Shown here: positions 17,615 through 40,737 of the stretch, piece after piece
Numbering within the stretch: position 1 is the stretch's first letter
Layout: every line of letters starts with the position of its first letter
Virus record (IMG/VR): IMGVR_UViG_3300020409_000022
Span: 1 to 56,226 of that record
DNA from: a virus
Lineage: Duplodnaviria > Caudoviricetes
Reading direction: 5' to 3' (one strand)
Length of the DNA stretch: 56,226 nt
The notes under the pieces: generated by a model
Databases searched by the model: none
Seen by the model: only the letters and a program-made list of their open reading frames with translations
What the model was told of the DNA's origin: nothing
Translations under genes and position numbers: made by a program

Positions 17615-19164
17615 TGCCAGATTTATCCAGAACACAACCAGTATCTTTTAACTGCGAGGGAGGACTGGTTTTAAATCGTTCTACGTTTATGATGCAACCA
17701 GGGGAAGCACTTGAGTTAGAAAACTTCGAGCCTGATATTGAGGGTGGTTACAGAAGAATAAATGGATTTAGTAAATACGTAACAGCAGTAGTTCCTCATA
17801 CTTCTGATACTTCAGAAAGAGTATTAATGGTTGCTACCTTTGCAAGTAAAGTTGTAGCAGCAAGAGGAACAAATATATTTACTGCAGATGCAGGAGGTTC
17901 TTCATGGACAACAGTAGATAGTGGAAGAACTAATGCAGGTAAATATAATTTTGAAAGATTTAACTTTGATGGTAACGATAAATTAATTGTTGCAGATGGT
18001 ACAAATGCACCAACAGTATTTAATACATCATTTAGTGCAACAGACGTAGATTCAGCAGGAACTGGCGAAGTTAGCACTGCAGTTACAGGTGCAAAATTTG
18101 TAACAGCATTTAAAGAACATATGTTCTACGCAGGTATGTCTGGCTCTAAACAAGAGATAATATTTAGTGTGCCTTTTGATGAAGATAACTTTCTTACAGC
18201 AAGTGGTGCAGGAAGTATTAAAGTTGATGATACTATAACTGGACTTAAAGTTTTCCGAGAAAATTTATTTATCTTTTGTGAAAACAGAATATTTAAACTG
18301 TCAGGAACATCAAGTAGTGATTTTGCTATAACTGCAGTAACAAGAGATATAGGCTGTATCAATGGAGATACAATCCAAGAATTTGCAGGTGACTTAATAT
18401 TCTTAGGTCCTGATGGATTAAGAACAGTTGCAGGTACTGCAAGAATTGGTGACGTTGAATTGGGTACTATAAGTTCTAACGTGCAGAGTTTATTTGATGA
18501 TAACTTAGATAGTGCGTCAGAATTTGAGTCAGTGGTTATACCTGATAAAACTCAATACAGAGTATTTTTTACAAAGGCTGCTCAAGCACAAGGCTCTACT
18601 CAAGGAGTTATATGTGTTTTGAAAGGCGAAAGATTTGAGTTTTCTAAAATGAAAGGCATAAAACCTGCTTCAACAGATACTTTCATAAGTGCAGGAAATG
18701 TAATAATTTTACATGGTGATTATGCCAATGGGTTTGTTTATAGGCAAGAGTCAGGTAATGACTTTGATGGCACAATAATAAGTGGTAAGTATAGAAGTCC
18801 TGACTTAACATTTGGTGATGCAGGTATACGTAAGCATATGCAACGTGTCATTGTAAACTTTGAACCTGAATCATCAATAGACGCAGATTTATTTTTAAGA
18901 TATGATTATGAATCTAGAGATGCTGTTCAACCCACAGCTTATGCGTTAGATTCAGAAGATGTTGCAGCGTTGTATGGAACATCTACATACGGAACAAGTT
19001 CTAGTTTAAAAGGGACTTATGGTGGAACGTCAAGACCTTTATTTAGACAATCAGTTGAGGGTTCAGGTTTTGCAGTTGCACTAAGAGTAAATGATGGTGG
19101 CACTACTGCACCATATTCTTTAAAAGGATTTCAACTAGAATATCAAACAGGAGCTAGAAGATAA
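17614..19164 (+). CDS. Tail nozzle / tubular protein B (stabilisation protein)
   Basis: Position after adaptor; GGL N-terminus; beta-propeller-like motifs DIGCI..DTIQE, LIFLGPDGLR. Confidence 0.8.
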   Translation: MPDLSRTQPVSFNCEGGLVLNRSTFMMQPGEALELENFEPDIEGGYRRINGFSKYVTAVVPHTSDTSERVLMVATFASKVVAARGTNIFTADAGGSSWTTVDSGRTNAGKYNFERFNFDGNDKLIVADGTNAPTVFNTSFSATDVDSAGTGEVSTAVTGAKFVTAFKEHMFYAGMSGSKQEIIFSVPFDEDNFLTASGAGSIKVDDTITGLKVFRENLFIFCENRIFKLSGTSSSDFAITAVTRDIGCINGDTIQEFAGDLIFLGPDGLRTVAGTARIGDVELGTISSNVQSLFDDNLDSASEFESVVIPDKTQYRVFFTKAAQAQGSTQGVICVLKGERFEFSKMKGIKPASTDTFISAGNVIILHGDYANGFVYRQESGNDFDGTIISGKYRSPDLTFGDAGIRKHMQRVIVNFEPESSIDADLFLRYDYESRDAVQPTAYALDSEDVAALYGTSTYGTSSSLKGTYGGTSRPLFRQSVEGSGFAVALRVNDGGTTAPYSLKGFQLEYQTGARR

Positions 19165-22100
19165 ATGGGTCAAACATACACTAGACAATCTTCCTACAGT
19201 GATGGAGACGTAATAACTGCAGCTCATACCAATGATGAGTTTAATCAGTTATTAGCAGCATTTCAAGCAAGTACAGGGCATACTCACGATGGCACAGCTA
19301 ACGAAGGTGGTCCTATTACCAAACTACTTGGTACTGCTATTACGATAGGTGATGGTACTGCAGGAACAGATATAGCAGTGACATTTGATGGTGAAACATC
19401 AGATGGTGTATTAACATGGAAAGAAGATGAGGATTATTTTGAATTTAGTGATGACATACTTATTGCTTCTACAGAAAAGTTACAATTTAGAGACACAGCA
19501 ATATACATCAATTCTAGTGCAGACGGACAACTAGATTTAGTAGCAGATACAGAAATACAAATTGCAGCTACTACAGTTGATTTAAATGGTAACTTAGATG
19601 TTTCAGGTTCTATTACTTTAGGTGGCACTGAAATTACATCTACTGCAGCAGAACTAAATATTCTAGATGGAGTTACTTCTACTGCATCAGAACTAAACAT
19701 ATTAGATGGAGTAACATCTACTACTGCAGAGTTGAATATTCTCGATGGAGTAACCTCAACTGCAACAGAATTAAATTTAGTTGATGGTTCATCTGCAGGT
19801 ACTATAGTAAATAGCAAAGCAGTTGTATATGGTTCTAGTGGCGAAGTAAATGCAACGACACTACAAATAGCAGGAACTTCTATTACTTCCACTGCAGCCG
19901 AACTTAATATTCTAGATGGAGTAACTGCCACTGCATCAGAGTTAAATATTTTAGATGGGGTGACTTCTACTGCATCAGAGTTAAATATACTTGATGGAGT
20001 AACTGCAACAACTGCAGAGTTAAACATTTTAGATGGTGTCACTTCAACTGCATCAGAGTTAAATATTTTAGATGGTGTTACTTCAACCACTGCAGAGCTA
20101 AATATACTTGATGGTGTAACTTCTACCACAGGTGAACTTAATTTACTTGATGGGTCAGCTAAATCAACTTCATCTATTACTATTGCTGACAGTGATGCCT
20201 TTATTATAATAGATGGTAATACAACCAAACAAATACCTGCTTCTGATTTAACAACATATTTAGCAGCAGGTGATATTACTGGTGTGACTGCAGGCGTAGG
20301 GCTTAGTGGAGGTGGTTCCTCAGGTGACGTAACAGTAACATTAGATTTATCAGAACTAAGTGATGTTACCCCTGTAAATGGAGATAAACTTGCTACGTTA
20401 GACTCTGATGGTTCAACAGAACAATTAACAACTGTGGCATCTCTTGCCACGCTATTTGCAGGTACAGGCTTATCTGCATCTAACTCTGTAATTAGTATTG
20501 ATGCAGCACAAACAGGTATAACTAGTTTACTTGCAACAGATATTAAAATTGGTGAAGATAACGAAACAAAAATAGACTTTGAGACTGCTAATGAAATACA
20601 TTTCTATGCAGCGAATGCAGAGCAAGTATTTGTTTCAGATGGAGTCTTTGGACCACAGACAGATAGTGATGTAGACTTAGGTACAACAGGTGTTAGATTT
20701 AAAGATGCTTACGTAGATTCTGTAACAGTTACAGGAGATGTTTCTGTAGGTGACGACCTTACAGTAGAAGGTGGTGTAATAGAATTAAAAAACACTGGGT
20801 CACAATCAGAACTTAGAATGTATTGTGAGTCTAGTAATGCACACTACGCTGCACTTCAAGCTCCTGCTCACAGTGCTTTTTCTGGTAACACTACACTAAC
20901 TTTACCTGCAACTACAGATACTATTGTAGGTAGAGCAACTACAGATACTCTCACAAATAAAACATTAACTAGTCCAAAGATAAATGAAAACGTAGCAGTT
21001 ACTGCAAGTGCAACAGAAATAAATCTTTTAGATGGTGTTACTGCAACAACCTCAGAATTAAATATACTTGACGGAGTTACATCCACAGCAGCAGAGTTGA
21101 ATTTAGTAGATGGTATAACTGCAGGTACAGTAGCTGCATCAAAAGCAGTTATAGCAGATTCAAACAAAGACGTAAGTGGTTTTAGAAATGTAAGTATGAC
21201 AGGTGACTTAACAGTTTCAGGTGATGCTATAGTTATGAATACAAACACTGCAGGTCACTTACTCATTGCAGATGGCACAGATTTTAACCCAAGAGCAGTA
21301 GGTGATTTATCAGAAATATCTACAGTTGCAAATGATGATGTGTTTTTAGCAGTAGATACTTCAGGTGGTGGTCTAAAGAAAATTACACGAAGCACTATTG
21401 TTTCAGGATTAGCAGTATCAGGCACAGGTTTAGATAATATAGTTGAAGACACTACACCTCAGTTAGGTGGTAATTTAGATGTAAACGGCAATAATATTAC
21501 AGGTTCTACACTGACGTTGGACTCTGCAGGAGACATCATACTTGATGCAGATGGTACAGATATAACTTTAAAAGATGGTGGAACAACTTTTGCTAATCTT
21601 AAAAACTCTAGTGGTGAGTTAGTAATTCAATCAGGTTCTACACCTACAACTGCTATGACATTTAGTGGTGCTAACGTAACTTTAGCAGGAAACTTAACTG
21701 TATCAGGAACAACAACTACAGTAAACTCTACTACTGTAAATTTAAATGACCACAATATTGTATTAGATAGTGGTAACAGTACAAGTGCAGTCGTAAATGG
21801 TGCAGGTATAACTCTTGAAGGTGGTAGTGGAGATGATGCTACATTTACATATAATACAACAGGTCCTAAGTTTGAATTAAAGTTAGGTTCTAGCCACGAA
21901 GATTTACAAGTAGACCAACTCATTGCAGCATCTTTAGATATATCAGGGAATGTGGATGTAGATGGAAAACTTGAAACAGATGAGCTATCTATAAATGGCA
22001 CTGACGTAACTGCTACTGCATCAGAGTTAAACATCTTAGATGGTGTCACTGCGACAGCATCAGAGCTTAATATTATGGATGGGGTTACTGCGACAACAGC

Positions 22101-23601
22101 AGAACTAAACATTCTTGATGGAGTTACTGCTAGTGCTACAGATATCAACTTAATAGATGGCATTACGAATGGAACTGTAATAGCAAGTAAAGCTATTATA
22201 ACTGATTCTAATAAAGACATATCAGGTGGTAGAAATATTACAATCTCAGGTGAGCTTGACGCAGCTACCCTAGACATTAGTGGTAATGCAGATATAGATG
22301 GTACACTTGAAGCAGATGCAATCACAGTGGGTGGCACTGCATTAAATACTGTTATAGCAGGTGTTACTGTATCCAACGCTACAACTGCAGCAGTAGCAAC
22401 AACAGTTACAATAACAGATAATGAAAGTACAAACGAAGACAACGCAGTTGTATTTACGGCAGGTGGTGACGTAGATGGTGGTAATTTAGGTTTAGAGAGT
22501 GATGGTAACTTAACTTACAATCCAAGCACAGGAAGATTAACTGCTACACAGTTAGCAGGTACATTACAAACTGCTGCACAGACAAACATTACATCACTAG
22601 GAACACTTACAACATTAACAGTAGATGACATTACTATTAATGGTAGCACTATATCTGACAGTGGAGATTTTACACTAGATATCAATGGTGACATAAATTT
22701 TGATGCTAATGGTGGTGATTTTAAATTTAAAGATAACGGAACAGAAATACTAAGGATTACCAACTCATCTAGTGATGTAATTATTAGACCTGTTGCCGAT
22801 GCTAAAGATATAATTTTTCAACAGAGAGATGGCACTGAAGTAGCAAGAGTTGAAGACAATGGTACATTTAATGTTGTTACAGACAAACTTGCTATAAACG
22901 GAACAGCAATTACATCCACTGCTGCAGAGTTAAACAAACTAGATGGGGTAACTTCTACAACTGCTGAATTAAATATCTTAGATGGGGTAACCTCTACTGC
23001 TGCAGAACTCAACATTCTCGATGGTGTCACATCTACCACTGCAGAATTAAATATATTAGATGGAGTAACCTCTACTACTGCAGAGTTAAATTTACTTGAT
23101 GGGTCAACTGCAGGAACAGTTGTAGCATCAAAAGCAGTTGTAGTAGACTCAAATAAAGATATAGCAAGTTTTAGAAATGTTACATTGACAGGCGAGCTTG
23201 ATGCAGCTACATTAGATATATCAGGTAATGCAGATATAGATGGAACACTTGAGACAGATGCGTTGTCCATTAATGGTACAACTGTTACTTCTACTGCTGC
23301 AGAACTAAACATCCTTGACGGAGTAACTTCTACTGCATCCGAATTAAATATTCTTGATGGTGTTACAGCGACAACTGCAGAACTAAACATACTTGATGGT
23401 GTGACATCTACTGCAGCGGAATTAAACATCATGGATGGTAATACATCTGCTTCTTCTACAACATTAGTTGATGCAGACAGGGTAGTAACAAACGACAATG
23501 GAACAATGAAACAGGTTGCATTATCAGATGTTAAAACATACTTGAGTAGTGCAGGCTTTTCAAGTGAAGACCCAACTGCATTAGCTATTGCATTGGGTTA
23601 A
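19165..23601 (+). CDS. Long tail fibre with 13-aa repeats (1478 aa)
   Basis: N-terminal anchor YTRQ...EFNQL..AF...GHTHDG; ELNILDG repeats; C-terminal ALAIALG. Confidence 0.88.
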   Translation: MGQTYTRQSSYSDGDVITAAHTNDEFNQLLAAFQASTGHTHDGTANEGGPITKLLGTAITIGDGTAGTDIAVTFDGETSDGVLTWKEDEDYFEFSDDILIASTEKLQFRDTAIYINSSADGQLDLVADTEIQIAATTVDLNGNLDVSGSITLGGTEITSTAAELNILDGVTSTASELNILDGVTSTTAELNILDGVTSTATELNLVDGSSAGTIVNSKAVVYGSSGEVNATTLQIAGTSITSTAAELNILDGVTATASELNILDGVTSTASELNILDGVTATTAELNILDGVTSTASELNILDGVTSTTAELNILDGVTSTTGELNLLDGSAKSTSSITIADSDAFIIIDGNTTKQIPASDLTTYLAAGDITGVTAGVGLSGGGSSGDVTVTLDLSELSDVTPVNGDKLATLDSDGSTEQLTTVASLATLFAGTGLSASNSVISIDAAQTGITSLLATDIKIGEDNETKIDFETANEIHFYAANAEQVFVSDGVFGPQTDSDVDLGTTGVRFKDAYVDSVTVTGDVSVGDDLTVEGGVIELKNTGSQSELRMYCESSNAHYAALQAPAHSAFSGNTTLTLPATTDTIVGRATTDTLTNKTLTSPKINENVAVTASATEINLLDGVTATTSELNILDGVTSTAAELNLVDGITAGTVAASKAVIADSNKDVSGFRNVSMTGDLTVSGDAIVMNTNTAGHLLIADGTDFNPRAVGDLSEISTVANDDVFLAVDTSGGGLKKITRSTIVSGLAVSGTGLDNIVEDTTPQLGGNLDVNGNNITGSTLTLDSAGDIILDADGTDITLKDGGTTFANLKNSSGELVIQSGSTPTTAMTFSGANVTLAGNLTVSGTTTTVNSTTVNLNDHNIVLDSGNSTSAVVNGAGITLEGGSGDDATFTYNTTGPKFELKLGSSHEDLQVDQLIAASLDISGNVDVDGKLETDELSINGTDVTATASELNILDGVTATASELNIMDGVTATTAELNILDGVTASATDINLIDGITNGTVIASKAIITDSNKDISGGRNITISGELDAATLDISGNADIDGTLEADAITVGGTALNTVIAGVTVSNATTAAVATTVTITDNESTNEDNAVVFTAGGDVDGGNLGLESDGNLTYNPSTGRLTATQLAGTLQTAAQTNITSLGTLTTLTVDDITINGSTISDSGDFTLDINGDINFDANGGDFKFKDNGTEILRITNSSSDVIIRPVADAKDIIFQQRDGTEVARVEDNGTFNVVTDKLAINGTAITSTAAELNKLDGVTSTTAELNILDGVTSTAAELNILDGVTSTTAELNILDGVTSTTAELNLLDGSTAGTVVASKAVVVDSNKDIASFRNVTLTGELDAATLDISGNADIDGTLETDALSINGTTVTSTAAELNILDGVTSTASELNILDGVTATTAELNILDGVTSTAAELNIMDGNTSASSTTLVDADRVVTNDNGTMKQVALSDVKTYLSSAGFSSEDPTALAIALG
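19633..23439 (+). repeat. 27 copies of a 39-bp / 13-aa repeat (V/I)T(S/A)TxxELNILDG in six blocks
   Basis: Counted from the translation: blocks of 4, 7, 3, 4, 5 and 4 units; synonymous codons diverged. Confidence 0.85.
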
Positions 23602-23617
23602 AAAATAGGATACAATT

Positions 23618-23965
23618 ATGGCAAATACATTTAAATTAGTAACTAAAGCAGGTGTAACAAGTGCTGATGTCATTTACACAGTAGCAAGTTCTACAACAAC
23701 AGTTGTTTTAGGAATTATGCTCGGTAATACAACAACAAGTCAAGTTACTGCAACAGTTACAATAGAATCAGATACAAGCAATAGGTCAGGTGCAAACAAT
23801 GAAGCAAATCAAACTGTGGAGTTAGTTACAAACGCACCTATACCTGCAGGTTCATCTCTTGAATTATTAGCAGGTAATAAAGTTGTAATGGAAACTACTG
23901 ATGTATTAAAACTAACTGCATCAGGTGCAACTGACATAGCAGTATCAATCATGGAGATTACATAA
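23618..23965 (+). CDS. Fibre-associated small beta protein (MANTFK-type)
   Basis: Follows the fibre; IPAGSSLELL..NKVV motif; ends SIMEIT. Confidence 0.75.
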   Translation: MANTFKLVTKAGVTSADVIYTVASSTTTVVLGIMLGNTTTSQVTATVTIESDTSNRSGANNEANQTVELVTNAPIPAGSSLELLAGNKVVMETTDVLKLTASGATDIAVSIMEIT

Positions 23966-24414
23966 TGGCAATTATAGGTAATCCACTTCCTGCTAACTTT
24001 CAAGCTCCACCCTCAGTGGTGAGGTTTAATGGTGATGGAAGTGATACTACATTTGCTTTAGGAAGAACAATAGGTACTGTACAAGATATACTTGTTTCTG
24101 TAGATGGTGTTGTTCAAGATAGTTCTGCTTATACTGTGCCTGATGGTTCTACTCTTACTTTTACTGCAGCACCTTCAAGTGGTACAAATAATATTTTTGT
24201 ATACTTTCTAGGATTAGCAGGTGAATCTATAACACCTACTGCTGAATTTAAAGGTAACTTTAAAGCAGGTGGTTTATTTAGAACTAACTCACAAACGTTG
24301 GATTCTAATATAACAATAACCTCTTCTGAAAATGCAAATGTTACAGGTCCTCTTACAATATCAAGTGGTGTAACATTGACAGTTGAAAGTGGTGGAAGGT
24401 TAGTAACATTATGA
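23965..24414 (+). CDS. Fibre adaptor-like protein A
   Basis: MAIIGNP N-terminus; FNGDGS.TTF.L...VDGVVQ...LTFTAAP domain; C-terminal NSQT..ITI..ENA..GP shared with 27229..27687. Confidence 0.75.
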   Translation: MAIIGNPLPANFQAPPSVVRFNGDGSDTTFALGRTIGTVQDILVSVDGVVQDSSAYTVPDGSTLTFTAAPSSGTNNIFVYFLGLAGESITPTAEFKGNFKAGGLFRTNSQTLDSNITITSSENANVTGPLTISSGVTLTVESGGRLVTL

Positions 24415-24818
24415 GTACAATTAAAACAGACACCTTAACTGGTACAAGTACAGCAGGTTCTATTTCTGTTACAGGCGAAGGAAATAGTACAACAACTAAT
24501 CTGCAACAAGGTCTTATTAAAGCATTTATTCATCATACAGGTGATAGTCCTACAACTAATGATTCATTTAATGTTGCTTCTTTAACTGATAATGATACTG
24601 GAGATTATACTTATACTTGGACTAATGCTTTTGGTAATACTTTTCCTAGTGTTAGTGGTATGTCTACCGAAGATGGCACAATAGGTTATGTAACCTTGTA
24701 TTTTGATAGGTCTTGGACTAAGTCAGGAGCTAATTTAAGAGTTCAAGGTATAGACCAAGGAGATAGTTATGATGATGGAGCATACTCCACTGTAATGGTG
24801 GCAGGAGATTTAGCATGA
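24411..24818 (+). CDS. GDLA-family adhesin-like paralog 1
   Basis: KAF...SFNVASLTDNDTGDY...GDLA. Confidence 0.78.
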   Translation: MSTIKTDTLTGTSTAGSISVTGEGNSTTTNLQQGLIKAFIHHTGDSPTTNDSFNVASLTDNDTGDYTYTWTNAFGNTFPSVSGMSTEDGTIGYVTLYFDRSWTKSGANLRVQGIDQGDSYDDGAYSTVMVAGDLA

Positions 24819-25246
24819 GTACCATAAAAACAAACACCTTAACAGGTACAACTTCAGCAGGTAGCATTCTTGTTACAGGAGAGGGTGGTGTTCAAACCAC
24901 AAACTTACAACAAGGATTATGTAAGGCTTGGACTTTTTTTGATTCAACCCCAACAACACCTGACCATACAGATAGTTTTAATGCTACTACATTAACTGAC
25001 ATTGGAACTGGTAATCAAAAGTTTGATTTTATAAATCCTATGGGCAATGCTAATTTTGCTTTTGGTGGTGCTGCAGTAGTTGATGAAACTACATTTGCTG
25101 TGTTAAGTGGCTCAGAAATAGCAGGAACTCATGCTCGTTCTACTTCAAATACTGGTGGATTTTTTACTTCAAATACTGCATCTGTAAATAGTGGTGCAAA
25201 TGCAAATAGTATATCAATTACAATACACGGAGATTTAGCAGAATGA
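24815..25246 (+). CDS. GDLA-family paralog 2
   Basis: KAW...SFNATTLTDIGTG...GDLAE. Confidence 0.78.
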   Translation: MSTIKTNTLTGTTSAGSILVTGEGGVQTTNLQQGLCKAWTFFDSTPTTPDHTDSFNATTLTDIGTGNQKFDFINPMGNANFAFGGAAVVDETTFAVLSGSEIAGTHARSTSNTGGFFTSNTASVNSGANANSISITIHGDLAE

Positions 25247-25662
25247 CAAACGGAACAATAGCATTTGATACATTAACAACATCTGATTCAAAGAACACTG
25301 GTACAGAGAAGTCTATTGATACGAGTTATATTTTTAATGGTTCAGCTAAATCATGGCTTAACTATGCTCAAAATGGTGACACAATAAACGATAGTTTTAA
25401 CATATCATCAGTATCTGATGAAAGCACAAGTGAATTTAAACCTGTCATGACAAATGCCATGGCGAATATTAATTATTCTGTTTATGGTGCTTATGCACCT
25501 AATTATGGTGTTGCTTCTAGTACAGGATATTCTATGCACCAGGATGGAACATCTGAGAGAGCACCAACAACAGTAGATTATTTTGCAAGAACTGTAGGAG
25601 CTAATGGAAGTGGTTTTGATTCTAAGTATAATTTAATTTCATTAGATGGAGACGTAGCATGA
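25243..25662 (+). CDS. GDLA-family paralog 3
   Basis: KSW...SFNISSVSD...GDVA. Confidence 0.78.
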   Translation: MTNGTIAFDTLTTSDSKNTGTEKSIDTSYIFNGSAKSWLNYAQNGDTINDSFNISSVSDESTSEFKPVMTNAMANINYSVYGAYAPNYGVASSTGYSMHQDGTSERAPTTVDYFARTVGANGSGFDSKYNLISLDGDVA

Positions 25663-26144
25663 CAATAAAAACACCAGAGTTTCAAGGCACACATTTATGG
25701 GATAGATTGTGTTGGGCAAAAGAAAACTTAGAAGGTAAGCAATCAGACTATCGTATTGTATGGCAAGACCCTGATAAACCTGAAGAGTGTTCTAAGGTAA
25801 CTGTGCCTGACCCTAATTGGATGGCTTGTGCGTTACAAGGTGGCATACTACCACCTGTAGAAGTATATTGGGCATTAGCAGAAGATGAAGCAAAGCCTGA
25901 CTTTAAGAAGCATACAAGAGGTTATTTGCTACACAATACTAAACCTATTGATGCAATGACAGAAGAACAAGCAATAGAATATTTAATTATGAAAGATATA
26001 CCACAAAGAGTGTGGAGAGAATATCAAAAAGCTAATCAACCTAGATTAGTGATTTGTAAAAAGAATCAGCTTCCAAGTACAAGAGAGTGGCGAAATGCTT
26101 GGAAGATTGATGAGAATATTAATGCCACTCATAAGGCAGCATAA
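25659..26144 (+). CDS. Fibre-associated hypothetical protein (possible chaperone)
   Basis: ATGA-coupled; MTEEQAIEYLIMKDIP...LPS.REWRNAW. Confidence 0.72.
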   Translation: MTIKTPEFQGTHLWDRLCWAKENLEGKQSDYRIVWQDPDKPEECSKVTVPDPNWMACALQGGILPPVEVYWALAEDEAKPDFKKHTRGYLLHNTKPIDAMTEEQAIEYLIMKDIPQRVWREYQKANQPRLVICKKNQLPSTREWRNAWKIDENINATHKAA

Positions 26145-26155
26145 AGGAGAACACA

Positions 26156-26527
26156 ATGCCAAAAACATTTATAATGGATAGAAATGGTAAAACAGTTGAT
26201 GCTTCAACTGTAACCAAGCCATCTGATAGACACTTTAGAGAAGCATGGACACTAAGTGGTGATGTTATCTCTGAAGACATGACCGAAGCTAAAAAAATCT
26301 TTCAAGATAAAATTAGAGAAGTCAGATTACCACTACTAGAAGCAGAAGATGTAGTGTACATGAAAGCATTAGAAGCAGATGATGCAAGTGCAAAGACTGC
26401 AAGTGTAGCTAAAAAGAAAGCACTTAGAGATGCACCTGCAGCCAAAGCTATATCTGATGCAGACACTATTGCAAAGCTCAAGGCAGCTTGGGATACATCT
26501 GTATTAGGTGACAGTCCATACGCATAA
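26156..26527 (+). CDS. Tail fibre assembly chaperone-like protein
   Basis: AAGGAG SD; KIREVRLPLL..EDV.YMKALE...KKALRDAP pattern. Confidence 0.65.
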   Translation: MPKTFIMDRNGKTVDASTVTKPSDRHFREAWTLSGDVISEDMTEAKKIFQDKIREVRLPLLEAEDVVYMKALEADDASAKTASVAKKKALRDAPAAKAISDADTIAKLKAAWDTSVLGDSPYA

Positions 26528-26537
26528 GGAATAGGTT

Positions 26538-27008
26538 ATGGCTTTAACTAAAGTACAAGCTGATGGGATTAATTTAGCTGACACCTTTGCTTTTACTGGC
26601 ACTGTTAGTGGAGCAGGTAAGGTTTTACAAGTTTTAGGTTCTTCATTAGCATCACAAGTAACAACAGCATCAACAAGTTTTGTAACAACAGGTGTATCGG
26701 TTGATATTACACCTTCTTCATCTTCTAACAAAGTTGCTCTTTTATTTGGATTACCTACTTATGCAGCAGTAGGGTCACATTTTATTGGAACACTTTATAG
26801 AGATAGTACAAACCTTGGTAACTCAAGCTGGGGTATGGGATTTGGTTCAAATTCTATTGCTGTAAATGTAAATGGTGCTTTTCTTGATTCACCAAATACA
26901 ACAAGCCAAGTTACATATGCAATTTATTGTAGGTCTTATTCTGGCACAGGGTACGCTATGATTAATAATGCTTTGGCTTCACTAACTGTTATGGAGATAT
27001 CAGCGTAA
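26538..27008 (+). CDS. MEI-family adhesin-like paralog 1
   Basis: GKVLQV...ITPSSSSNKV...LDSPNTTSQVTY...MEISA. Confidence 0.78.
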   Translation: MALTKVQADGINLADTFAFTGTVSGAGKVLQVLGSSLASQVTTASTSFVTTGVSVDITPSSSSNKVALLFGLPTYAAVGSHFIGTLYRDSTNLGNSSWGMGFGSNSIAVNVNGAFLDSPNTTSQVTYAIYCRSYSGTGYAMINNALASLTVMEISA

Positions 27009-27229
27009 TGGAAGAAATTAAAGAATTTGAAAAGTTAAGTAAAGCTATACAAACTTTAAAGTCAAATTGTGAGTTTGTCTTTAGTGGAACAATAATAGAC
27101 GAAGTAAACTTTAATAAAATTAAATGGGTTACTGGTGTAGAAGAAAATGGAATGGCAAAAACTACAACCACTTGTCCACATAGTGAAATAACTTGGACTA
27201 AAGTAAAAGCAGAAATGGACAAATTATAA
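27008..27229 (+). CDS. Small XkdW-like fibre-associated protein
   Basis: AIQTLK.NCEF...IKW...TWTKVKAE; TAATG coupling. Confidence 0.6.
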   Translation: MEEIKEFEKLSKAIQTLKSNCEFVFSGTIIDEVNFNKIKWVTGVEENGMAKTTTTCPHSEITWTKVKAEMDKL

Positions 27230-27687
27230 TGGGATATATAGGAAAATCACCCTCTAATGGAGTAAGAAGTAGGTTTGTTTACCAAGCGACTGCAGGTCAA
27301 ACTTCTTTTAGTGGTAGTGATGCAAATTCTTTAACATTAGCATACACTGATAGCTTGTATATGGATGTGTACCAAAATGGTGTTCTCCTCAAAACAGGTA
27401 CAGATTATGCAGCTACAAGTGGCACAAGTGTCGTGTTAGTGACGGCAGCAAGTGCAAATGATATTGTAGAAATGATTGTTTATGATGTCTTCTCAGTTCA
27501 AGATACTTATACTAAAACTGAGTCAGACACACGTTATCCATTCAAAGGTAATAACAGTATTATAAGATTAAATGGGCAGACTATAAGTGCAGACATAACT
27601 ATAGACTCAGATGAGAATGGAGTCAGTGCAGGTCCTATTACACAGAACGCCACAGTCACTGTTAATGGTTATTGGAGTATCGTATGA
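27229..27687 (+). CDS. Fibre adaptor-like protein B
   Basis: MGYIGKSP; ATAGQTSF...DVYQNGVLL...DY domain; C-terminus paralogous to 23965..24414. Confidence 0.75.
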   Translation: MGYIGKSPSNGVRSRFVYQATAGQTSFSGSDANSLTLAYTDSLYMDVYQNGVLLKTGTDYAATSGTSVVLVTAASANDIVEMIVYDVFSVQDTYTKTESDTRYPFKGNNSIIRLNGQTISADITIDSDENGVSAGPITQNATVTVNGYWSIV

Positions 27688-28088
27688 CAAGTCAGTTAAA
27701 TGTAGATACCATAAAAGGCAAATCAACAGCAGGTTCTATTTCTATTCAAGGTGAAGGAAGCAAAACTACTAATCTGCAACAAGGGTTGTTAAAGGCATGG
27801 TCTCATACTACAACACATAACACATTAGCAGATTCTTTAAATATTAGTTCTGTTACGGATAATGGAGGTGGGCAGTCCAACGACACTTTTACCAATCCTT
27901 TTGCAAATACGACTTATTGTATTAATTATGGTATACGAGATGGTGGTGGCACTAATGATGACAGACTTATAATGTCAGGTTCAAGTGAGTTGTTTTCAAC
28001 ATCACAGTATGGGGTTTATTGTGTTAGCACTACAACACTAAATGATGCTGACTTTTTATTTTTACAATACGCAGGAGACTTAGCATAA
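27684..28088 (+). CDS. GDLA-family paralog 4
   Basis: ATGA-coupled start at 27684; TNLQQGLLKAW...SLNISSVTDNG...GDLA. Confidence 0.78.
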   Translation: MTSQLNVDTIKGKSTAGSISIQGEGSKTTNLQQGLLKAWSHTTTHNTLADSLNISSVTDNGGGQSNDTFTNPFANTTYCINYGIRDGGGTNDDRLIMSGSSELFSTSQYGVYCVSTTTLNDADFLFLQYAGDLA

Positions 28089-28465
28089 TGGCAAGTATAT
28101 TAAAAGTAGATAGCATAGGAAAGACATCTGGTAGTACACAAGATACTATGGCTGGGTTAGCAAAGATTTTAGCAAGTCTTGATACAACAGGAACAGCAGA
28201 AATTGATAACTCTTTTAATCTTGCTAGTATAACAGACAATGGAACTGGAGATTTTACATTAGATTTTACAAATGATTTGAGTAGTGCTTTTTCTTTTTGT
28301 TCTTTTATGTGTGCTGCTAATGCAAGTTTTGATGATGAAGGTTCGGCTCATGTAATATCAAGAGCAACAGGAACACATAGATTTGGTGTAACTGATATAC
28401 ATAATGCAGCAGACGCTTTTGATTATGACCCTGTAATGTTTACAATACACGGAGACTTAGCATAA
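28088..28465 (+). CDS. GDLA-family paralog 5
   Basis: SFNLASITDNGTGDF...HGDLA. Confidence 0.78.
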   Translation: MASILKVDSIGKTSGSTQDTMAGLAKILASLDTTGTAEIDNSFNLASITDNGTGDFTLDFTNDLSSAFSFCSFMCAANASFDDEGSAHVISRATGTHRFGVTDIHNAADAFDYDPVMFTIHGDLA

Positions 28466-28857
28466 TGGCTAGTGAATTAAGAGTAGATACATTAAAAGAT
28501 GCGAGTGGTAATAATAGTGTTGCTACGAGCACAGTAGCAAGTGGGAGTGCTAAAGCATGGTGTTTGTTTGAAGGTGATGGTACTGCTGCAATAACAGATT
28601 CTTTTAATTTTGGTTCTATTACAGACAACGGAACTGGTGATTATTCTTTTGCAATAACTAATAACATGAGCAATGGAAATTACTGTGTTCCTTGCGGAAC
28701 TGTGAAAGACACAGGTGGACAGACTACAAACATAGCAGTTGACCACGATAATCCTCCAAGTGCAAGTGTATTAAGAATGTTATGTGTAGATGATTATACA
28801 CAAGCACAAAGAGATGGTGAGTTGCAATCCTTTAATGTTTTAGGAGACTTAGCATGA
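28465..28857 (+). CDS. GDLA-family paralog 6
   Basis: KAW...SFNFGSITDNGTGDY...GDLA. Confidence 0.78.
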   Translation: MASELRVDTLKDASGNNSVATSTVASGSAKAWCLFEGDGTAAITDSFNFGSITDNGTGDYSFAITNNMSNGNYCVPCGTVKDTGGQTTNIAVDHDNPPSASVLRMLCVDDYTQAQRDGELQSFNVLGDLA

Positions 28858-29381
28858 GTAAAGCAGCAGATTTAGCAAGATTTATAGGTGGTGGTTTTTC
28901 AGGTAAAGTTTTACAAGTTGTAAGCACGAATAAAACTGATAAAACAGATAGTGCAGATTTTGATACAAGTTTTGAAAATGTAACTGGCTTAACTGTAAAT
29001 ATTACTCCATCATCTACCTCTAGTAAAATATATGTTATCGCCACTTTACAAATTTCAGTTGCAGGCTATCACCTTACTTTTAGAATTGCTAGAGGGGGAA
29101 GCACTATAGTAGAGCCAAGTGCAGCAGGAAACAGAATGCTAGGTATGACACATATTTATGGTAGCTCTTCTTTTAATGACCATTACAATATTGAAAGTAA
29201 AGTAATGCAAGTTTTAGATAGTCCAAGTTCTACATCAGAGCTAACTTATAGTGTGCAAGGAAAAAATGCAAACAATGCAAACACTACTGGTTTAGTTGTT
29301 AATTCAACAAATAATGATGTAGATGCTGCTTACAATTCAAGAGTTATTTCAACTATTACAGCTATGGAGATTGCTGGATAA
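28854..29381 (+). CDS. MEI-family adhesin-like paralog 2
   Basis: GKVLQV...ITPSSTSSKI...LDSPSSTSELTY...MEIAG. Confidence 0.78.
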   Translation: MSKAADLARFIGGGFSGKVLQVVSTNKTDKTDSADFDTSFENVTGLTVNITPSSTSSKIYVIATLQISVAGYHLTFRIARGGSTIVEPSAAGNRMLGMTHIYGSSSFNDHYNIESKVMQVLDSPSSTSELTYSVQGKNANNANTTGLVVNSTNNDVDAAYNSRVISTITAMEIAG

Positions 29382-29614
29382 TGGAAATAGACGCAATGTT
29401 ATTTTGGAACATTATCTTAACTATGGTCGTTATACCATTTGGTTGGGCATTTAACAAGATGTTCCAAGAGGTAAAACGTCTACAGATATTATTAAATAAG
29501 ACACGAGAAGAGTATGCACGTAAAGATGATGTAAAAGAAGATATGCATGACATCATGGATGCAATGAAAAGATTAGAAGATAAGCTAGACAAGATATTGA
29601 TGGGAGCTAGATAG
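29381..29614 (+). CDS. Small membrane protein with coiled-coil tail
   Basis: N-terminal transmembrane helix, then heptads ending RLEDKLDKIL. Confidence 0.75.
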   Translation: MEIDAMLFWNIILTMVVIPFGWAFNKMFQEVKRLQILLNKTREEYARKDDVKEDMHDIMDAMKRLEDKLDKILMGAR

Positions 29615-31431
29615 TGGCAGAGGCTAGAAAAAGAAAAATGCAAGAGGGCGGCACTACCATAAGTAATGTAACACCGCCAACTACAACTACCATGGATGTA
29701 GATGAGTATATGGGACAACAGATTACTAATCCTGTAATGCCTCAACAAAGTCAATTTGTTCCTCAGACACAAGCAATACAACCAGGAGAAGAAGTTTCTC
29801 CAGAGGCATATGCTTTACAGGGGCAACCTGATATACCAATATCACAAGCTACAACCACACAAGCACAAGGTCCTGCTGTGTCTCCAGCAGCACAAGTATC
29901 TCCAGCATTAATTGGGACTACAACACCAACAGCGACTGCTCAACAAGGCACAGGACTCACGCAACAAGCTGTAGCACAAGAAGGAGTTGTATCTCCTCAA
30001 GCGTTAGCACAAGCTCAACAAGGAGTTAGTCAAGGACTAGTACAACAAGCAGACATAACTCAAAGACAAGTTACAGCCCCTGAACAAATAACAGGAGCAG
30101 TAGCAGATACATCATTTTTAGCAGGAACTACACCTGCTCAAACAGATTTTGTAAGTCAGGTAGAGGGTGCCACAATGACTGTCACACCAGAAATGACAGT
30201 GCAAGGACAGTTAGCCCGTATATCTCAACAATTTACAGATGGTCAGGTACCATCTTGGGCAGCAGGGGTTGTGCGTAACGCTACAGCAGTAATGGCACAA
30301 AGAGGTCTTGCAGCTTCATCAATGGCAGGAGCAGCTATAACTCAAGCAATATTAGAGGCTTCTGTACCCATAGCAACAGCAGATGCTCAAACATACTACA
30401 ATACTGCTGTTAAAATAATGGACAATCAACAGCAAGCAAACTTAACAAATACACAAAATAATTTAAATGTTTCGTTAGCTAATATGTCTAACAGACAACA
30501 AACAGCTCTAGCGAAAATGCAAGTGCAGGCGGCTCTGGCAGGTCAAACCCTCTCAAATCAACAACAAGCAAATATCCTCAACGCTGAAAAATTTGCCGAA
30601 GCAGCTAATCTTAATTTTACGCAAGAACAGCAGAGAGTGTTTTCTAACTCTAAAATGATGGAAACACTTAATTTGCAAAACTTAAATAATGCACAAACAG
30701 TAGCCTTGTCAAACGCAGCTAATTTTGCTAAAATGGATATGGCTAATCTAAATAATAGGCAACAAGCCATGGTATTAAATGCACAAGGCTTTTTGCAAAT
30801 GGATATGTCTAATTTAAGTAACACTCAACAAACAGAAACTATAAATCAACAAGCTAGATTGCAAACTTTGTTGTCAGACCAAGCAGCCCAAAATGCTGCT
30901 CAAAACTTTAATGCTACTAGTCAGAACCAGGTAAATCAGTTTTTTGAGACATTGGCATCTGATATTAGAAAACTAAACGCAACACAGGCTAACTCACATG
31001 AGCAGTTCAATGCAGGACAAGCTAATGCCTTATCACAGTTTCGTGCTACCATGCAAAATACAAGAGAACAATTTAATACAAAGAATGCTTTAGAGATAGC
31101 CCAAAGTAATGCTACCTGGAGAAGAAACGTAAACACCGCAAACACAGCTTCAGTAAATGCAGCTAATCAAATTAATGCAGCTAATTACTTAGGTATATCA
31201 AATCAAGCATTAGCAAACATTTGGCAACAATATAGAGATGAAGCAGACTATGTATATAATTCATCAGAGAATGCTCAAGATAGAGCATTTAATTATGCTA
31301 TGGCTGTACTTGATGCAAAAGTATCGGCAGACCAGTATGATAAATACTTAGATGAACAATCATCTAGTGCTATTGGTGGTTTTATTGCAGAATTAGGTAT
31401 AGCGGCAATAAATAGAGGAATATTCGGATGA
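29614..31431 (+). CDS. Gln/Ala/Asn-rich internal virion (ejection/pilot-like) protein
   Basis: Long Q/N/A coiled-coil with roughly 11-residue N-x-x-Q-Q periodicity; glycine-rich hydrophobic C-terminus; after tail genes. Confidence 0.7.
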   Translation: MAEARKRKMQEGGTTISNVTPPTTTTMDVDEYMGQQITNPVMPQQSQFVPQTQAIQPGEEVSPEAYALQGQPDIPISQATTTQAQGPAVSPAAQVSPALIGTTTPTATAQQGTGLTQQAVAQEGVVSPQALAQAQQGVSQGLVQQADITQRQVTAPEQITGAVADTSFLAGTTPAQTDFVSQVEGATMTVTPEMTVQGQLARISQQFTDGQVPSWAAGVVRNATAVMAQRGLAASSMAGAAITQAILEASVPIATADAQTYYNTAVKIMDNQQQANLTNTQNNLNVSLANMSNRQQTALAKMQVQAALAGQTLSNQQQANILNAEKFAEAANLNFTQEQQRVFSNSKMMETLNLQNLNNAQTVALSNAANFAKMDMANLNNRQQAMVLNAQGFLQMDMSNLSNTQQTETINQQARLQTLLSDQAAQNAAQNFNATSQNQVNQFFETLASDIRKLNATQANSHEQFNAGQANALSQFRATMQNTREQFNTKNALEIAQSNATWRRNVNTANTASVNAANQINAANYLGISNQALANIWQQYRDEADYVYNSSENAQDRAFNYAMAVLDAKVSADQYDKYLDEQSSSAIGGFIAELGIAAINRGIFG

Positions 31432-31706
31432 TTGGAATAGCAGCAGCAATAGGTGCACAAATAATAGGAGGCACTTTAAATAAAAGTGGAGGGCAACGCT
31501 CTGTACAACAAACACAAGTTCAATCTCCAAGGTCTTTTCAATCAAGTATATATGAAAAGTTTGGTAGAGCAACAAGTAGGCGACCTAGAGTATCAGGTTT
31601 CACAAGACCTGCAGAAGTATCAACAGGTTCTTTCTATGGTCCAACAAGTAAATATAATGCTATAATAAGAAAAAGACTAGGTCTACTAACGTCAACGAAA
31701 GCATAA
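31428..31706 (+). CDS. Small putative internal virion protein
   Basis: Ala/Gly hydrophobic N-terminus, basic body; ATGA overlap. Confidence 0.6.
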   Translation: MIGIAAAIGAQIIGGTLNKSGGQRSVQQTQVQSPRSFQSSIYEKFGRATSRRPRVSGFTRPAEVSTGSFYGPTSKYNAIIRKRLGLLTSTKA

Positions 31707-31710
31707 TAAC

Positions 31711-32283
31711 ATGGATATACAATTAAAAGATACCATGACTTTACCGAGTGGTAAAGAAAGGTCTGTATTTGATACAACTATTCCTGGACAATCATTTACG
31801 GCAAACCCAGGCATATATCCTTGGGATAGCCCACCATTGTTAAACTCATCAGATGAAGTTGTACAATTTTTTTCAGAAAAATTTGATAATGAATCAGCCG
31901 CTACACAGTTATTAACTTTGTTAGAAACAGATATTTCTGTATCAACAATAGTTGATTCTTTGTTGTTAGCAGGATTTGCAGAAGGCTTATTTAATCCTGA
32001 TGTTGCCGTATTAGCTGCAGAAGATTTAATATTACTAATTACTTATTTAGGTAAAGAAGCAGGATTAGACCCTAAAATAGTAGATGAGCAAGAGGGCACT
32101 GTAAGTGACGCATTACAAAAAATTGCTACACTTAAAGAAAGCAAAAAAGAATTTGCAGATTATAATGCTGGCATAGAACCTCCAACTGAGGAAGAAACAA
32201 CAGAAGAAGAACCTTTGCAAAAAGGATTGATGGCAAAGAAACCAAAAGAAGTAACGCAGGAGACAGAAGATGGTATCATTTAG
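31711..32283 (+). CDS. Acidic hypothetical virion-associated protein
   Basis: IPGQSFT..PG.YPWDSPP, GLFNPDV, C-terminal KGLMAK. Confidence 0.75.
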   Translation: MDIQLKDTMTLPSGKERSVFDTTIPGQSFTANPGIYPWDSPPLLNSSDEVVQFFSEKFDNESAATQLLTLLETDISVSTIVDSLLLAGFAEGLFNPDVAVLAAEDLILLITYLGKEAGLDPKIVDEQEGTVSDALQKIATLKESKKEFADYNAGIEPPTEEETTEEEPLQKGLMAKKPKEVTQETEDGII

Positions 32284-38805: not shown

Positions 38806-40737
38806 TTACTTTCCTATGTCAACTATTTCACAACTGTCTGCCGTGCAAGCAAGAGTTTGATTACCTACAGTGTTGTCTTCAGTTTCATAATCTTTTAACT
38901 TAGTCCAATCTATGAACTCTGGCATTTTTTTACTAAACTCTTTGTAATCTTTTTCAGAGCAATCTTGATATGGGGCTTGTTCATACACCATATCGTTACG
39001 TGGTAAAAAAGACAATCCAGAAGCTATATCAAAGTTATCATATATCCAACTGCCAGTTTTAAGCCACTCATCTTTTGCCACAGATACAGTTACAGATGGT
39101 TTGTGTTCACACCAGTTTTCTGCATATATTTTCCAAAAATCAAGTTGCTCTACTGCTGACATATCATCTCTTGTAATACAATCTTCGGGAGCTTTTATAG
39201 GAAAACTAAATACTGCGTTTTCTTTGCTCCACCCATCTGTTTCCCAAGGTATATTGTTATCCATCATAAATCTTGTGAGAGGGTCTTTTTTATCTCCACG
39301 AACTGTACGGATATAATACTTACTATGTCTAGCATGAATACCAGAAGCAGAATCTGTGAGTTGTGAAACTGTTCCAGAGGGTTTTACACAAGTAATAGCA
39401 GTTGATTGAGGAATGCCTAATAATTGTGCATATTTTTTGTTTGTTTCAACGGCAACCTCACGTAAAGTTTTCAATACTTCAGCTAAATTAGTTCCCTGGT
39501 CTGTGCCATTTGTAATAGCATTGTCCATTATACCCGTCATAGAGACCCCAAGCAGTCTTTCTTCTTCAGTATTCTTCTGCCACACCTTACGTAAGTAAGG
39601 AAAGTGAGTCAAAGTAGACTGGAAAGTTCCTATTATTGTAGCAGTGTGAACTTTAGCCTTTAGAGTGCTTAAGTTATCATTTCCTCGTACAATAACTTCA
39701 GATAAATTACAGAACTGGTAAGGTCTCAATATTATCTCGCTACAAGGATTAGTACCAAAGTCATACTCTGCATCTCTTCTGCCATTTTCTAATGCTTTAT
39801 TTTTTGCGGCACCTCTGTAGAACATGCCTCTTTCTCCAGTTCCAGACTCTGCAAGAGCAATCCACTCTCTCATAAATGTGTATGGGTCTGGTTTTTCTGT
39901 GTAAGCAACTGAATTATTTGACATTTGTCTTTGAGGTTCTGTTTTATAGAACTCTCCAGTTTTAGCGTGGCGCATTCTGTCGTCAGATAAATTAGACAGA
40001 CTAATCATTGCAGAACGTCTAACTCCGCCAGATACAACAACTTCACCAACTTTACACATTAAGTCGTGGCACTCTAAACTTGATAACTTTCTGCCACTTG
40101 CATCTCTAAATATCTTAACTGTGAACCTAAATAAATTATCCAAAGGTGCAGGTCCAGATGCTCTACCACCAAATATTTTTAATTTAGCTCCTGCAGGTCT
40201 AATTAAACTTAAATCCCATTTAGGTATTTCCCCTGCCCATAATAAAGCTAACAACTTACGGAATGCCTTTGCCCACCCCTCTTTGCTATCCTTGACAATT
40301 ATTGTTTCTTCTGTATCAAAAAGTAAAGCAGGTACTTCTGGAAGTTTACTTATAAAATTTCTTTCAACAGAAAACCCTACACCAGTTCCACACATAAGGA
40401 TATACATGGCTTCGTCAAATGCTTTAGGGTCATCAACGGGTAAATAAGAACAATTATACCCTGCAGTATTATCTCTATCTAATGCTTTACCTGCCGTCAT
40501 CATGGCTCTCATGGAAGGCATAACTTCTTGATGCATTATAGATTGTCTTATGTTTTCTTTTACTTCTTCATCTAAAGTAAAATTATGCTTTGTTTTCAGA
40601 TGCTTAACCATAAAATCTATATATCGACTTATAGTTTCGTGCCATTCTTCTCTTCTGTTTTCATCATCTATCCACCTAGCATACCTAGATTTGTGAATGA
40701 ATTGTTGGTAGTATGTTGGTAATGTTACATTGCTCAT
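38806..40737 (-). CDS. nrdJ: Class II (adenosylcobalamin-dependent) ribonucleotide reductase
   Basis: PSMR, NCSY, TNPCSEI, TCVKPSGT, C-terminal ACTADSCEI; no beta subunit or activase gene in the genome. Confidence 0.93.
   Translation of the reverse strand: MSNVTLPTYYQQFIHKSRYARWIDDENRREEWHETISRYIDFMVKHLKTKHNFTLDEEVKENIRQSIMHQEVMPSMRAMMTAGKALDRDNTAGYNCSYLPVDDPKAFDEAMYILMCGTGVGFSVERNFISKLPEVPALLFDTEETIIVKDSKEGWAKAFRKLLALLWAGEIPKWDLSLIRPAGAKLKIFGGRASGPAPLDNLFRFTVKIFRDASGRKLSSLECHDLMCKVGEVVVSGGVRRSAMISLSNLSDDRMRHAKTGEFYKTEPQRQMSNNSVAYTEKPDPYTFMREWIALAESGTGERGMFYRGAAKNKALENGRRDAEYDFGTNPCSEIILRPYQFCNLSEVIVRGNDNLSTLKAKVHTATIIGTFQSTLTHFPYLRKVWQKNTEEERLLGVSMTGIMDNAITNGTDQGTNLAEVLKTLREVAVETNKKYAQLLGIPQSTAITCVKPSGTVSQLTDSASGIHARHSKYYIRTVRGDKKDPLTRFMMDNNIPWETDGWSKENAVFSFPIKAPEDCITRDDMSAVEQLDFWKIYAENWCEHKPSVTVSVAKDEWLKTGSWIYDNFDIASGLSFLPRNDMVYEQAPYQDCSEKDYKEFSKKMPEFIDWTKLKDYETEDNTVGNQTLACTADSCEIVDIGK

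Follow-up and report, generated by a model that had tools for sequence, protein, structure and literature searches.

The receptor-binding locus of a marine phage carries predicted ribosome-binding sites within the last codons of its small knob genes, and the bodies of these knobs appear to have been exchanged among gene slots and among genomes. The genome in question is IMG/VR record IMGVR_UViG_3300020409_000022, which was analyzed over its whole length of 56,226 nucleotides (nt) and is referred to here as the window; it is a complete HMO-2011-type marine podophage genome (estimated completeness, 98%). A tight run of co-oriented genes at 23.6 to 29.4 kb is the receptor-binding locus, in which two anchors are accompanied by knob slots in the order A1 - N1 - P1 P2 P3 - X - Y - A2 - Z - N2 - P4 P5 P6 - A3 (Table 1). 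The explanation of the whole locus that we favor, and that we think is probably correct, combines anchors and knob slots with Shine-Dalgarno (SD) sites embedded in gene ends and with homologous exchange of the knob bodies. An initial annotation, made from the sequence of the window alone, had read the motif shared by these gene ends as codons, as an SD site, and as a possible crossover point between freely shuffled cassettes.

GGAG at gene ends and the codons that spell it

The window has exactly six copies of the longer form of the motif, GGAGAYKTAGCA, all of them on the plus strand (at 24804, 25229, 25648, 28074, 28451, and 28843), as the initial annotation had listed; 0.01 copies were expected from shuffled sequences. 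Every copy reads Gly-Asp-Leu/Val-Ala (GDLA or GDVA) at the end of an open reading frame (ORF) and leads into a stop/start junction of the form ATGA or TAATG, with one additional Glu codon between motif and ATGA in P2. The shorter form, ATGGAGAT, is present in seven copies (1.77 expected), and the three of these that had been assigned to gene ends (23951, 26991, and 29364) do read Met-Glu-Ile (MEI) within the last four to six codons of the ORFs at 23618-23965, 26538-27008, and 28854-29381. On the plus strand of 23951-29383, GGAGAY was found 12 times, nine times at gene ends and three times internally (24600, 24759, and 28247). Stop and start codons overlap or abut, as ATGA or TAATG, at 9/9 of the motif junctions, and GGAG precedes the next ATG by 7, 10, 7, 10, 10, and 7 nt at the GDLA ends and by 8, 11, and 11 nt at the MEI ends. 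Because the genes overlap or abut in this manner, an SD site must lie in the last codons of the preceding gene. GGAG is the usual SD sequence of this phage: it stands 4 to 12 nt ahead of the start codon in 28 of the 68 genes of the window, compared with 2.7% of arbitrary positions.

We fetched 80 related IMG/VR loci, most of them fragmentary, using N1 as the query and added Puniceispirillum phage HMO-2011; 82 records were used for the junction counts. A local hidden Markov model, run with hmmsearch over the 82 records, identified 205 P-type ORFs, 184 of which have GD[LVIM]A in their last seven residues and which together supply 159 unique junctions. The terminal Gly codon is GGA at 157 of these junctions and GGG at 2, so that the expectation of a nearly invariant codon at this site, as against codon use elsewhere in the genome, was upheld: GGA accounts for 34% of Gly codons in the window (418/1215), for 29% inside P genes (720/2473), and for 44% of those before Asp. 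The Asp codon next to the terminal Gly is GAC in 119 cases and GAT in 40, and the Leu codon is TTA (76), CTA (41), CTC (26), CTT (6), TTG (6), or CTG (1). Since the sequences are related to one another, the control was taken from the same alignment, in the form of further conserved Gly columns. In an alignment of 144 sequences the terminal Gly is GGA in 141/142, compared with 33/116, 20/122, 42/95, and 65/139 (16 to 47%) in four other conserved Gly columns. A corresponding preference was seen in the second reading frame, where the Glu codon of the ending xEI is GAG in 39/40 unique ends of the A1 family and 10/10 of the A family (49/50 in all) compared with a window background of 31%. When Leu substitutes for Met in the MEI class, it is mostly encoded by TTG, and GGAG is retained.

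Gene ends that depart from the consensus were also informative. Among the 21 P-type ORFs without GD[LVIM]A, those ending GELA, GELG, GVLA, GALA, GGLS, or GDLS retain GGAG. The sequence has been lost from two SDLA ends and from one QVIP end, which carry TAG-GAG right after the stop codon; this leaves a GNLA end (GGAAAT) as the only variant without GGAG. In 10 of the 11 P ends in which Asp is replaced, the new codon still begins with G (Glu in 6, Gly in 2, Val in 1, and Ala in 1); the eleventh encodes Asn. The A1 family has 52 unique ends, and the 12 that lack xEI have TAAGGA or TAGGAG in the spacer. By junction type, unique P ends divide into 100 with ATGA and 71 with TAATG. A survey of 368 unique junctions of the locus placed GGAG within the upstream codons at 198 of the 270 that overlap or abut and at or past the stop codon at 55 of the 78 with a gap of at least 7 nt.

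GGAGAY would thus be shared because selection fixes the Gly as GGA (GGA-GAY) and the Glu as GAG (ATG-GAG), holding GGAG 6 to 11 nt ahead of the next start. That the gene-end GGAG is the predicted SD site of the downstream gene, as the initial annotation had proposed, is well supported by these sequence comparisons, and protein constraint alone does not explain the conservation, since synonymous positions are locked as well. GDLA and xEI are also genuine protein motifs, and the site is under two layers of constraint.

Anchors, slots, and exchanged knob bodies

N1 matched phrog_18673, a "tail fiber protein" family, over residues 1-149 (E = 4.7e-32) and matched PF03906 (Phage T7 tail fibre N-terminal domain) with 21.8 bits, below the cut-off of 25.2 (E = 1.6e-4). 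Its 64 unique orthologs are 68 to 100% identical to the N1 of the window. N2, which is 32% identical to N1, had no match to PF03906 at E values up to 0.1. All six P paralogs matched phrog_11355, a family of small "tail fiber proteins," over most of their length (E = 1.2e-8 to 1.2e-17). They are 29 to 42% identical to P1, and the G, D, and A of the terminal GDLA are among the 11 invariant columns.

An AlphaFold2 model of P6 made with 144 sequences had a predicted local distance difference test (pLDDT) score of 85 and consisted of a low-confidence segment (residues 1-20), a short helix, and a beta-sandwich extending from residue 29 to the end (residue 130). The top VIA-align matches of this model were distal domains of tailspikes and fibers together with lectins (Z of 5.2 to 7.5), among them Pam1 and phiAB6 (Z of 7.5 each), AP22 gp53 (6.6), and the R-pyocin fiber (5.5). 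Foldseek returned nothing from PDB for the P6 model at an E value of 0.001 or better; in BFVD, 58 viral proteins matched it at that level, several of them named tail fibers. The model of A3 (pLDDT of 72) resembled the TNF-like lectin PLTL (Z of 13.3; root mean square deviation of 2.5 over 122 residues) and matched 38 chains at a Z of at least 8, including C1q, BclA, and cyanophage A-1(L) fiber domains; the C-terminal part of A3 also matched phrog_6942, a "tail fiber protein" family. By these models, then, the six P-type knobs are predicted beta-sandwiches ending in GDLA or GDVA, and the A-type knobs (A2 and A3, which align at 32% identity) are predicted TNF/C1q-like jelly rolls ending in MEI. 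In both types the C-terminal motif forms the last strand of the model. A1 also ends in MEI and has no assigned fold. A predicted complex of three N1 and three P1 chains scored 0.21 against a mark of 0.32, which counts neither for nor against attachment.

In loci that extend far enough, the order A1-N1-(three slots)-X-Y-(one slot)-N2-(three or four slots) is kept. We refer to the slots behind N1 as a1 to a3, to the one ahead of N2 as b1, and to those behind N2 as c1 to c4. Their contents vary: most are P type, and A-type genes, C1q genes, several unrelated families (f30, f33, f36, and others), and sometimes a small accessory gene were also found. The first ~10 residues are slot specific regardless of the body that follows, reading MANGTIAFDTL in a3, M[TS]S[QV]LNVD in c1, and MSKAA[ED]LA in c4, and the MALT[KQR]V of slot b1 precedes at least 10 body families. 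Because of this slot specificity, whole genes do not move freely, and the idea that any cassette can follow any other is not supported.

Movement of the bodies themselves was apparent from pairwise comparisons, which count pairs and not independent events. Bodies in different slots formed 17 pairs at 70% protein identity or better and 2 at 90% or better, and bodies in the same slot formed 56 and 49, respectively. When seven cross-slot pairs were aligned as DNA, identity was ~75 to 98% from about +100 to +165 nt up to GGAGAY..GCA or the stop codon, and the flanks could not be aligned; in one of the seven the right side was uninformative since the contig ended there. High identity begins near the QQGL-K-W codons, at the start of the sandwich. 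Logan contigs (4 runs from 4 studies; short contigs compared at 92% likeness) gave at least 27 joints, and the following figures are for the 15 listed. Fourteen of these 15 resume within -7 to +11 nt of the junction GGAGAY. Eleven are replacements of a body within one gene, and all six P genes are covered. Left edges of the joints are internal to the gene, between about +10 and +208 nt, and those of the 11 replacements fall at +10 to +118 nt. These comparisons show that what is exchanged is the body of the knob, which extends from a left edge within the gene to the motif-bearing end. The cassette shuffling put forward in the initial annotation is accordingly kept in part: bodies are exchanged between slots and genomes and their right edge lies at the motif, but the whole gene is not the unit, and the left breakpoints do not map to the upstream junction.

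The strings of 17 to 22 nt common to paralogs 2 and 5 and to paralogs 1 and 4, which the initial annotation had pointed out, are present in the sequence and are covered by repeat families D1, D5, D7, and D9. The direct repeats of the locus are paralog segments that are 60 to 95% identical and at most 101 nt long. In the N-terminal part of P1 and P4, 18 of 27 identical residues have identical codons. Because there is no clear excess of identical codons, the shared strings need no recent exchange.

The slots also seem to break metagenome assemblies. Among the related loci (L002-L081), the 1.5 kb next to N1 on its downstream side contains the end of 33/79 contigs, compared with 11/79 on the upstream side, and a 9-kb flank is reached by 2/79 downstream compared with 21/79 upstream.

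Two further features of the slot genes were noted. The larger non-P genes (A type, f70, f71, and f165) often precede a small gene encoding 74 to 128 amino acids (aa) (cluster f18; for example, L001 7196-7516 and genes in L051, L062, L073, and L081), which does not occur behind P-type genes and whose product may be a dedicated chaperone. Some P genes have a submodule, TAGSIxVTGEG...TTNLQQGL, between the N-terminal peptide and the body. It is found at 24411-24540 and 27684-27812 of the window and in some genes of slots a1, a2, b1, c1, and c2 of related loci and is absent from others, so that P genes may be three-part mosaics.

The locus in its genome and in other phages

Table 1. Coordinates of the genes of the receptor-binding locus and of other window features
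Feature	Coordinates	Strand	Remarks
Repeat-rich fiber protein, 1478 aa	19165..23601	+	ORF; phrog_29288, phrog_30158 (unknown function); upstream of locus
A1, 115-aa structural protein ending ..SIMEIT	23618..23965	+	ATGGAGAT at 23951-23958; GGAG 8 nt ahead of N1 start
N1, first anchor, 149 aa	23965..24414	+	phrog_18673; PF03906 subthreshold
P1 knob gene, slot a1	24411..24818	+	GGAGATTTAGCA at 24804-24815, encoding GDLA and giving predicted SD for P2; ATGA overlap
P2 knob gene, slot a2, ending GDLAE	24815..25246	+	Motif 25229-25240; predicted SD for P3
P3 knob gene, slot a3, ending GDVA	25243..25662	+	Motif 25648-25659; predicted SD for X
X, 161 aa, conserved	25659-26144	+	Between the two arrays; no PHROG match
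Y, 123 aa, conserved	26156-26527	+	phrog_20196 (unknown function); own spacer SD TAAAGGAGAA
A2, slot b1, A-type knob ending ..VMEISA	26538..27008	+	ATGGAGAT at 26991-26998; GGAG 11 nt ahead of next start
Z, 73 aa	27008..27229	+	No relatives among fetched loci
N2, second anchor, 152 aa, ending ..YWSIV	27229..27687	+	TGGAGT gives GGAG at 27674-27677, 6 nt ahead of P4 start
P4 knob gene, slot c1, ATG at 27684	27684..28088	+	Motif 28074-28085; TAATG junction
P5 knob gene, slot c2	28088..28465	+	Motif 28451-28462; TAATG junction
P6 knob gene, slot c3	28465..28857	+	Motif 28843-28854; ATGA overlap
A3, slot c4, TNF/C1q-like knob (by model) ending ..AMEIAG	28854..29381	+	ATGGAGAT at 29364-29371; GGAG 11 nt ahead of start 29381
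RusA-like Holliday-junction resolvase	41930-42436	-	General recombination function
Cas4-domain exonuclease	42448-43335	-	General recombination function

The top DNA match of the window is HMO-2011 (72% identity over 28% of the query, for query positions 23600-29400), whose gene order equals that of the window. In HMO-2011 the genes concerned, gp28-gp42, are annotated as tail fiber or hypothetical proteins. Like the window, HMO-2011 has the order A1-N1-slots-X-Y-slot-N2-slots and has P-type genes, and its five P-type genes all end in GDLA with GGAGAC. Its slot contents differ from those of the window: a2 is occupied by an A-type gene, c2 by a gene with a C1q domain, and c4 by a gene encoding 364 aa.

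A tblastn search matched only eight phage records, and the two that were inspected share the layout of small genes. The GC-rich freshwater cyanophages Microcystis phage Mel-JY33 and Nostoc phage Nsp-JY18 have the same fiber-P-P-P-X-Y module. The junction GGAGACCTCGCATGA is used twice in Mel-JY33, and in Nsp-JY18 an HGSLA end is written with GGGAGC, within which GGAG is still present. Because the module is present in GC-rich cyanophages with the GGAGACCTCGCATGA junction, it must be much older and more widespread than the HMO-2011 group. In these cyanophages (records L082, 1-3372, and L083, 1-3309) the module consists of a fiber with an N1-like C terminus, three small P-type genes, X, and Y. X and Y are the best-conserved genes of the locus and always lie between the two knob arrays; an assembly factor or a structural part are possibilities for their role.

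Elsewhere in the window, which has a G+C content of 32 to 38% throughout, PHROG matches identified genes of the head and tail (those for terminase, portal/adaptor, the major head protein, and tail proteins), a virion protein matching an "amidase" family, and a set of minus-strand replication genes in the second half, for DNA polymerase, a DnaB-like helicase, primase, and ribonucleotide reductase. The last of these (38806-40737; phrog_367) and a ferredoxin-family protein (3701-4366; phrog_3704) have auxiliary-metabolism annotations. The 1478-aa protein encoded just upstream of the locus has dozens of near-identical units of ~14 residues (ELNILDGVT[SA]T[AT][AS]-like), grouped into several blocks; its positional counterpart in HMO-2011 is gp43, a "tail fiber protein" (1782 nt; ~593 aa). 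A scan of 19000-32000 gave 48 promoter-like and 6 terminator-like sequences, equal to the means for shuffled sequences (47.2 and 6.0), and did not inform on operon structure.

RVT_1, Phage_integrase, and Resolvase had no match in this 98%-complete record, in agreement with the earlier statement that no dedicated recombinase is involved. The window does encode general recombination functions (Table 1), and the unassigned 290-aa ORF adjoining them (43335-44204, minus strand) may encode the annealing protein that would partner them in a phage recombination module. We rejected a shufflon or invertible segment because the cassettes are co-oriented, because inverted repeats do not exceed 24 nt at 78 to 89% complementarity, and because Phage_integrase and Resolvase were not matched. 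A diversity-generating retroelement was likewise rejected on the basis of the absence of an RVT_1 match and of the nature of the direct repeats, which are only paralog segments. A programmed frameshift or read-through fusion was set aside because each ORF has its own ATG, SD sequence, and conserved Met-initiated N-terminal peptide.

Competing explanations and known systems

The explanation that we favor would work as follows. Each of the two anchors is followed by fixed slots holding small knob genes, whose products would be translated separately, and the codon selection described above would keep every downstream start supplied with GGAG. One flanking homology block would run from the C-terminal motif across the stop/start junction into the slot-specific N-terminal codons of the following gene, and the other would be the conserved region around QQGL-K-W where the sandwich begins. 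Through both flanks, general homologous recombination would then swap bodies among phages as well as among slots, with selection retaining products that are in frame, translated, and attachable. The recombination step is inferred, and ordinary homologous exchange is the economical reading of it.

A number of observations weigh against this explanation. On the translational side, the sequences are related, so that 157/159 does not represent 159 independent events, a concern that the control within the same alignment answers in part, and SD function rests on sequence statistics. Moreover, among 47 unique non-P slot genes (A type included), 22 have neither an embedded GGAG nor a GGAG, AGGA, or GAGG in a spacer under a strict pattern, alongside 16 with GGAG in the last codons and 9 with an SD-like site past the stop codon. 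On the structural side, the fold matches of the P type are all below a Z of 8, a range in which matches are common. With regard to exchange, the sides of the Logan joints are only 20 to 55 nt long, and the four cross-gene joints (20 to 31 nt) are possible repeat artifacts. Sharp edges of long segments of at least 95% identity mostly fall at borders between conserved and variable genes (50/60 right ends at the border of N1 and slot 1 and 14/19 left ends at that of slot 3 and X), a pattern that would follow from any process that varies the slots and that weakens the case for recombination. When a strict gene-centered search required high-scoring segment pairs of at least 150 nt and at least 85% identity that covered the body and had flanks of 150 nt, no more than 5 events remained at right edges and 8 at left edges; these are scattered and too few for a clustering test. 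Finally, recent conversion among the six paralogs of the window was not evident, the proportion of identical codons at identical residues being mostly ~40 to 65%.

Other explanations fit parts of these data. The initial annotation took the 12-nt sequence GGAGAY(T/G)TAGCA as a preferred crossover site or microhomology linker through which whole cassettes are joined in any order without a recombinase. We consider this unlikely, even though the right edges do fall at the motif, both in 14 of the 15 joints listed and in the cross-slot alignments, the bodies do occur in different slots, and the genome has neither a site-specific recombinase nor a reverse transcriptase. The left edges lie inside the gene instead of at the upstream junction, the N-terminal peptides are slot specific, and the paralogs of the window lack an excess of identical codons. 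The conserved block, moreover, runs well past 12 nt into the next gene, providing longer homology. Nearly all P genes contain the motif, so that similarity must resume there regardless of where the crossover took place; a crossover cannot be placed inside the 12 nt, and the motif as a physical crossover point is unproven.

Two further explanations were weighed. One holds that the bodies diverge fast in place under diversifying selection, with anchors, N-terminal peptides, and C-terminal motifs being conserved, and that there is no exchange. We regard this as very improbable. It would account for the position of most sharp edges between conserved and variable genes, for the age of the window paralogs as judged from their identity to P1, and for the few clean events left by the strict search, but bodies that are 85 to 95% identical in protein occur in different slots and genomes beside unalignable flanks, and slots hold unrelated folds and families behind one N-terminal peptide, an outcome that divergence in place cannot yield. 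The other, to which we assign the lowest probability of all, is that GDLA and MEI are conserved C-terminal strands and that their identity in DNA follows from codon bias. Asp, Leu, and Ala are indeed kept as residues while Leu uses six codons, GDLA is kept in the GC-rich cyanophages, and the models place the motif in their last strand. Codon bias does not, however, produce GGA at 141/142 terminal Gly residues against 16 to 47% in the control columns, nor GAG at 49/50 against its background of 31%; replacements of Asp retain a G-initial codon in all but one case, and the SD sequence shifts into the spacer where the motif is lost. Returning to exchange of bodies by homology, one may go further and suppose that the junction block has been selected as a "universal adaptor" that keeps an incoming knob translated and attached and provides the preferred homology for frequent exchange both within a genome and between genomes, with up to eight different miniature lectin-like knobs on two anchors. 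We hold this extension to be rather doubtful; if true, it would give these phages a built-in means of reshuffling host range without a recombinase.

The elements of the favored explanation have precedents. SD sequences located in the last part of a preceding gene are established, as is translational coupling where genes overlap (PMC2784483; review, PMC12548453). As in those systems, GGAG here lies 6 to 11 nt ahead of an overlapping or abutting start, the codon choice of the upstream gene is bent to accommodate it, and a spacer SD sequence (TAAGGA or TAGGAG) is the alternative. Unlike in those systems, one site has been copied through a gene family within a conserved C-terminal peptide, and ~160 unique junctions of the family display the lock, which occurs in two frames (GGA-GAY and G-GAG-AT). 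With respect to the anchors, PMC6872550 and PMC13352976 describe T7-like Klebsiella phages (KP32, K11, and KP34) in which receptor-binding protein 1 has an anchor domain and receptor-binding protein 2 has a conserved docking peptide. By analogy, the logic here may be similar, with an anchor resembling the T7 gp17 N-terminal domain, separate receptor-binding proteins, a position-conserved N-terminal peptide, and an exchangeable distal part; what differs is that there are two anchors and about eight slots for knobs of ~125 to 175 aa in place of one or two large depolymerase tailspikes. On N1 and N2 (149 and 152 aa) we saw no branching domain of the T4gp10 type, although no search aimed at such a domain was made.

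Phage tail fibers are well known to be mosaic: their N-terminal parts are conserved, their distal domains are swapped, and the mosaic edges fall sharply where domains or genes meet. The locus described here has these same features, but its unit is a single domain of ~100 residues, which is bounded on the right by the ribosome-binding motif of its neighbor and can occupy up to eight slots. Variation of tail fiber genes among HMO-2011-type phages is mentioned in parts of PMC6918029, and no description of the slot architecture or of the junction motif was found in the titles and abstracts of the HMO-2011 tail fiber literature searched, a set that does not include the original HMO-2011 paper and supplements. 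The arrangement is neat but ordinary; it adds a clear example to kinds that are already known and is not a new mechanism.

What the locus offers is a case in which one short sequence serves two purposes, as the last strand of one protein and as the predicted ribosome-binding site of the next gene, and in which the codon evidence for this is unusually clear. HMO-2011-type phages have been reported to be among the most abundant viruses in the sea, and for these abundant and little-studied phages the analysis provides a readable map of the receptor-binding locus, with two anchors, fixed slots, slot-specific N-terminal peptides, and exchangeable knobs of ~100 residues. Such a map would be useful for the annotation of viromes, whose assemblies break at this locus, and for studies of host range in SAR116, Roseobacter, and related phages.

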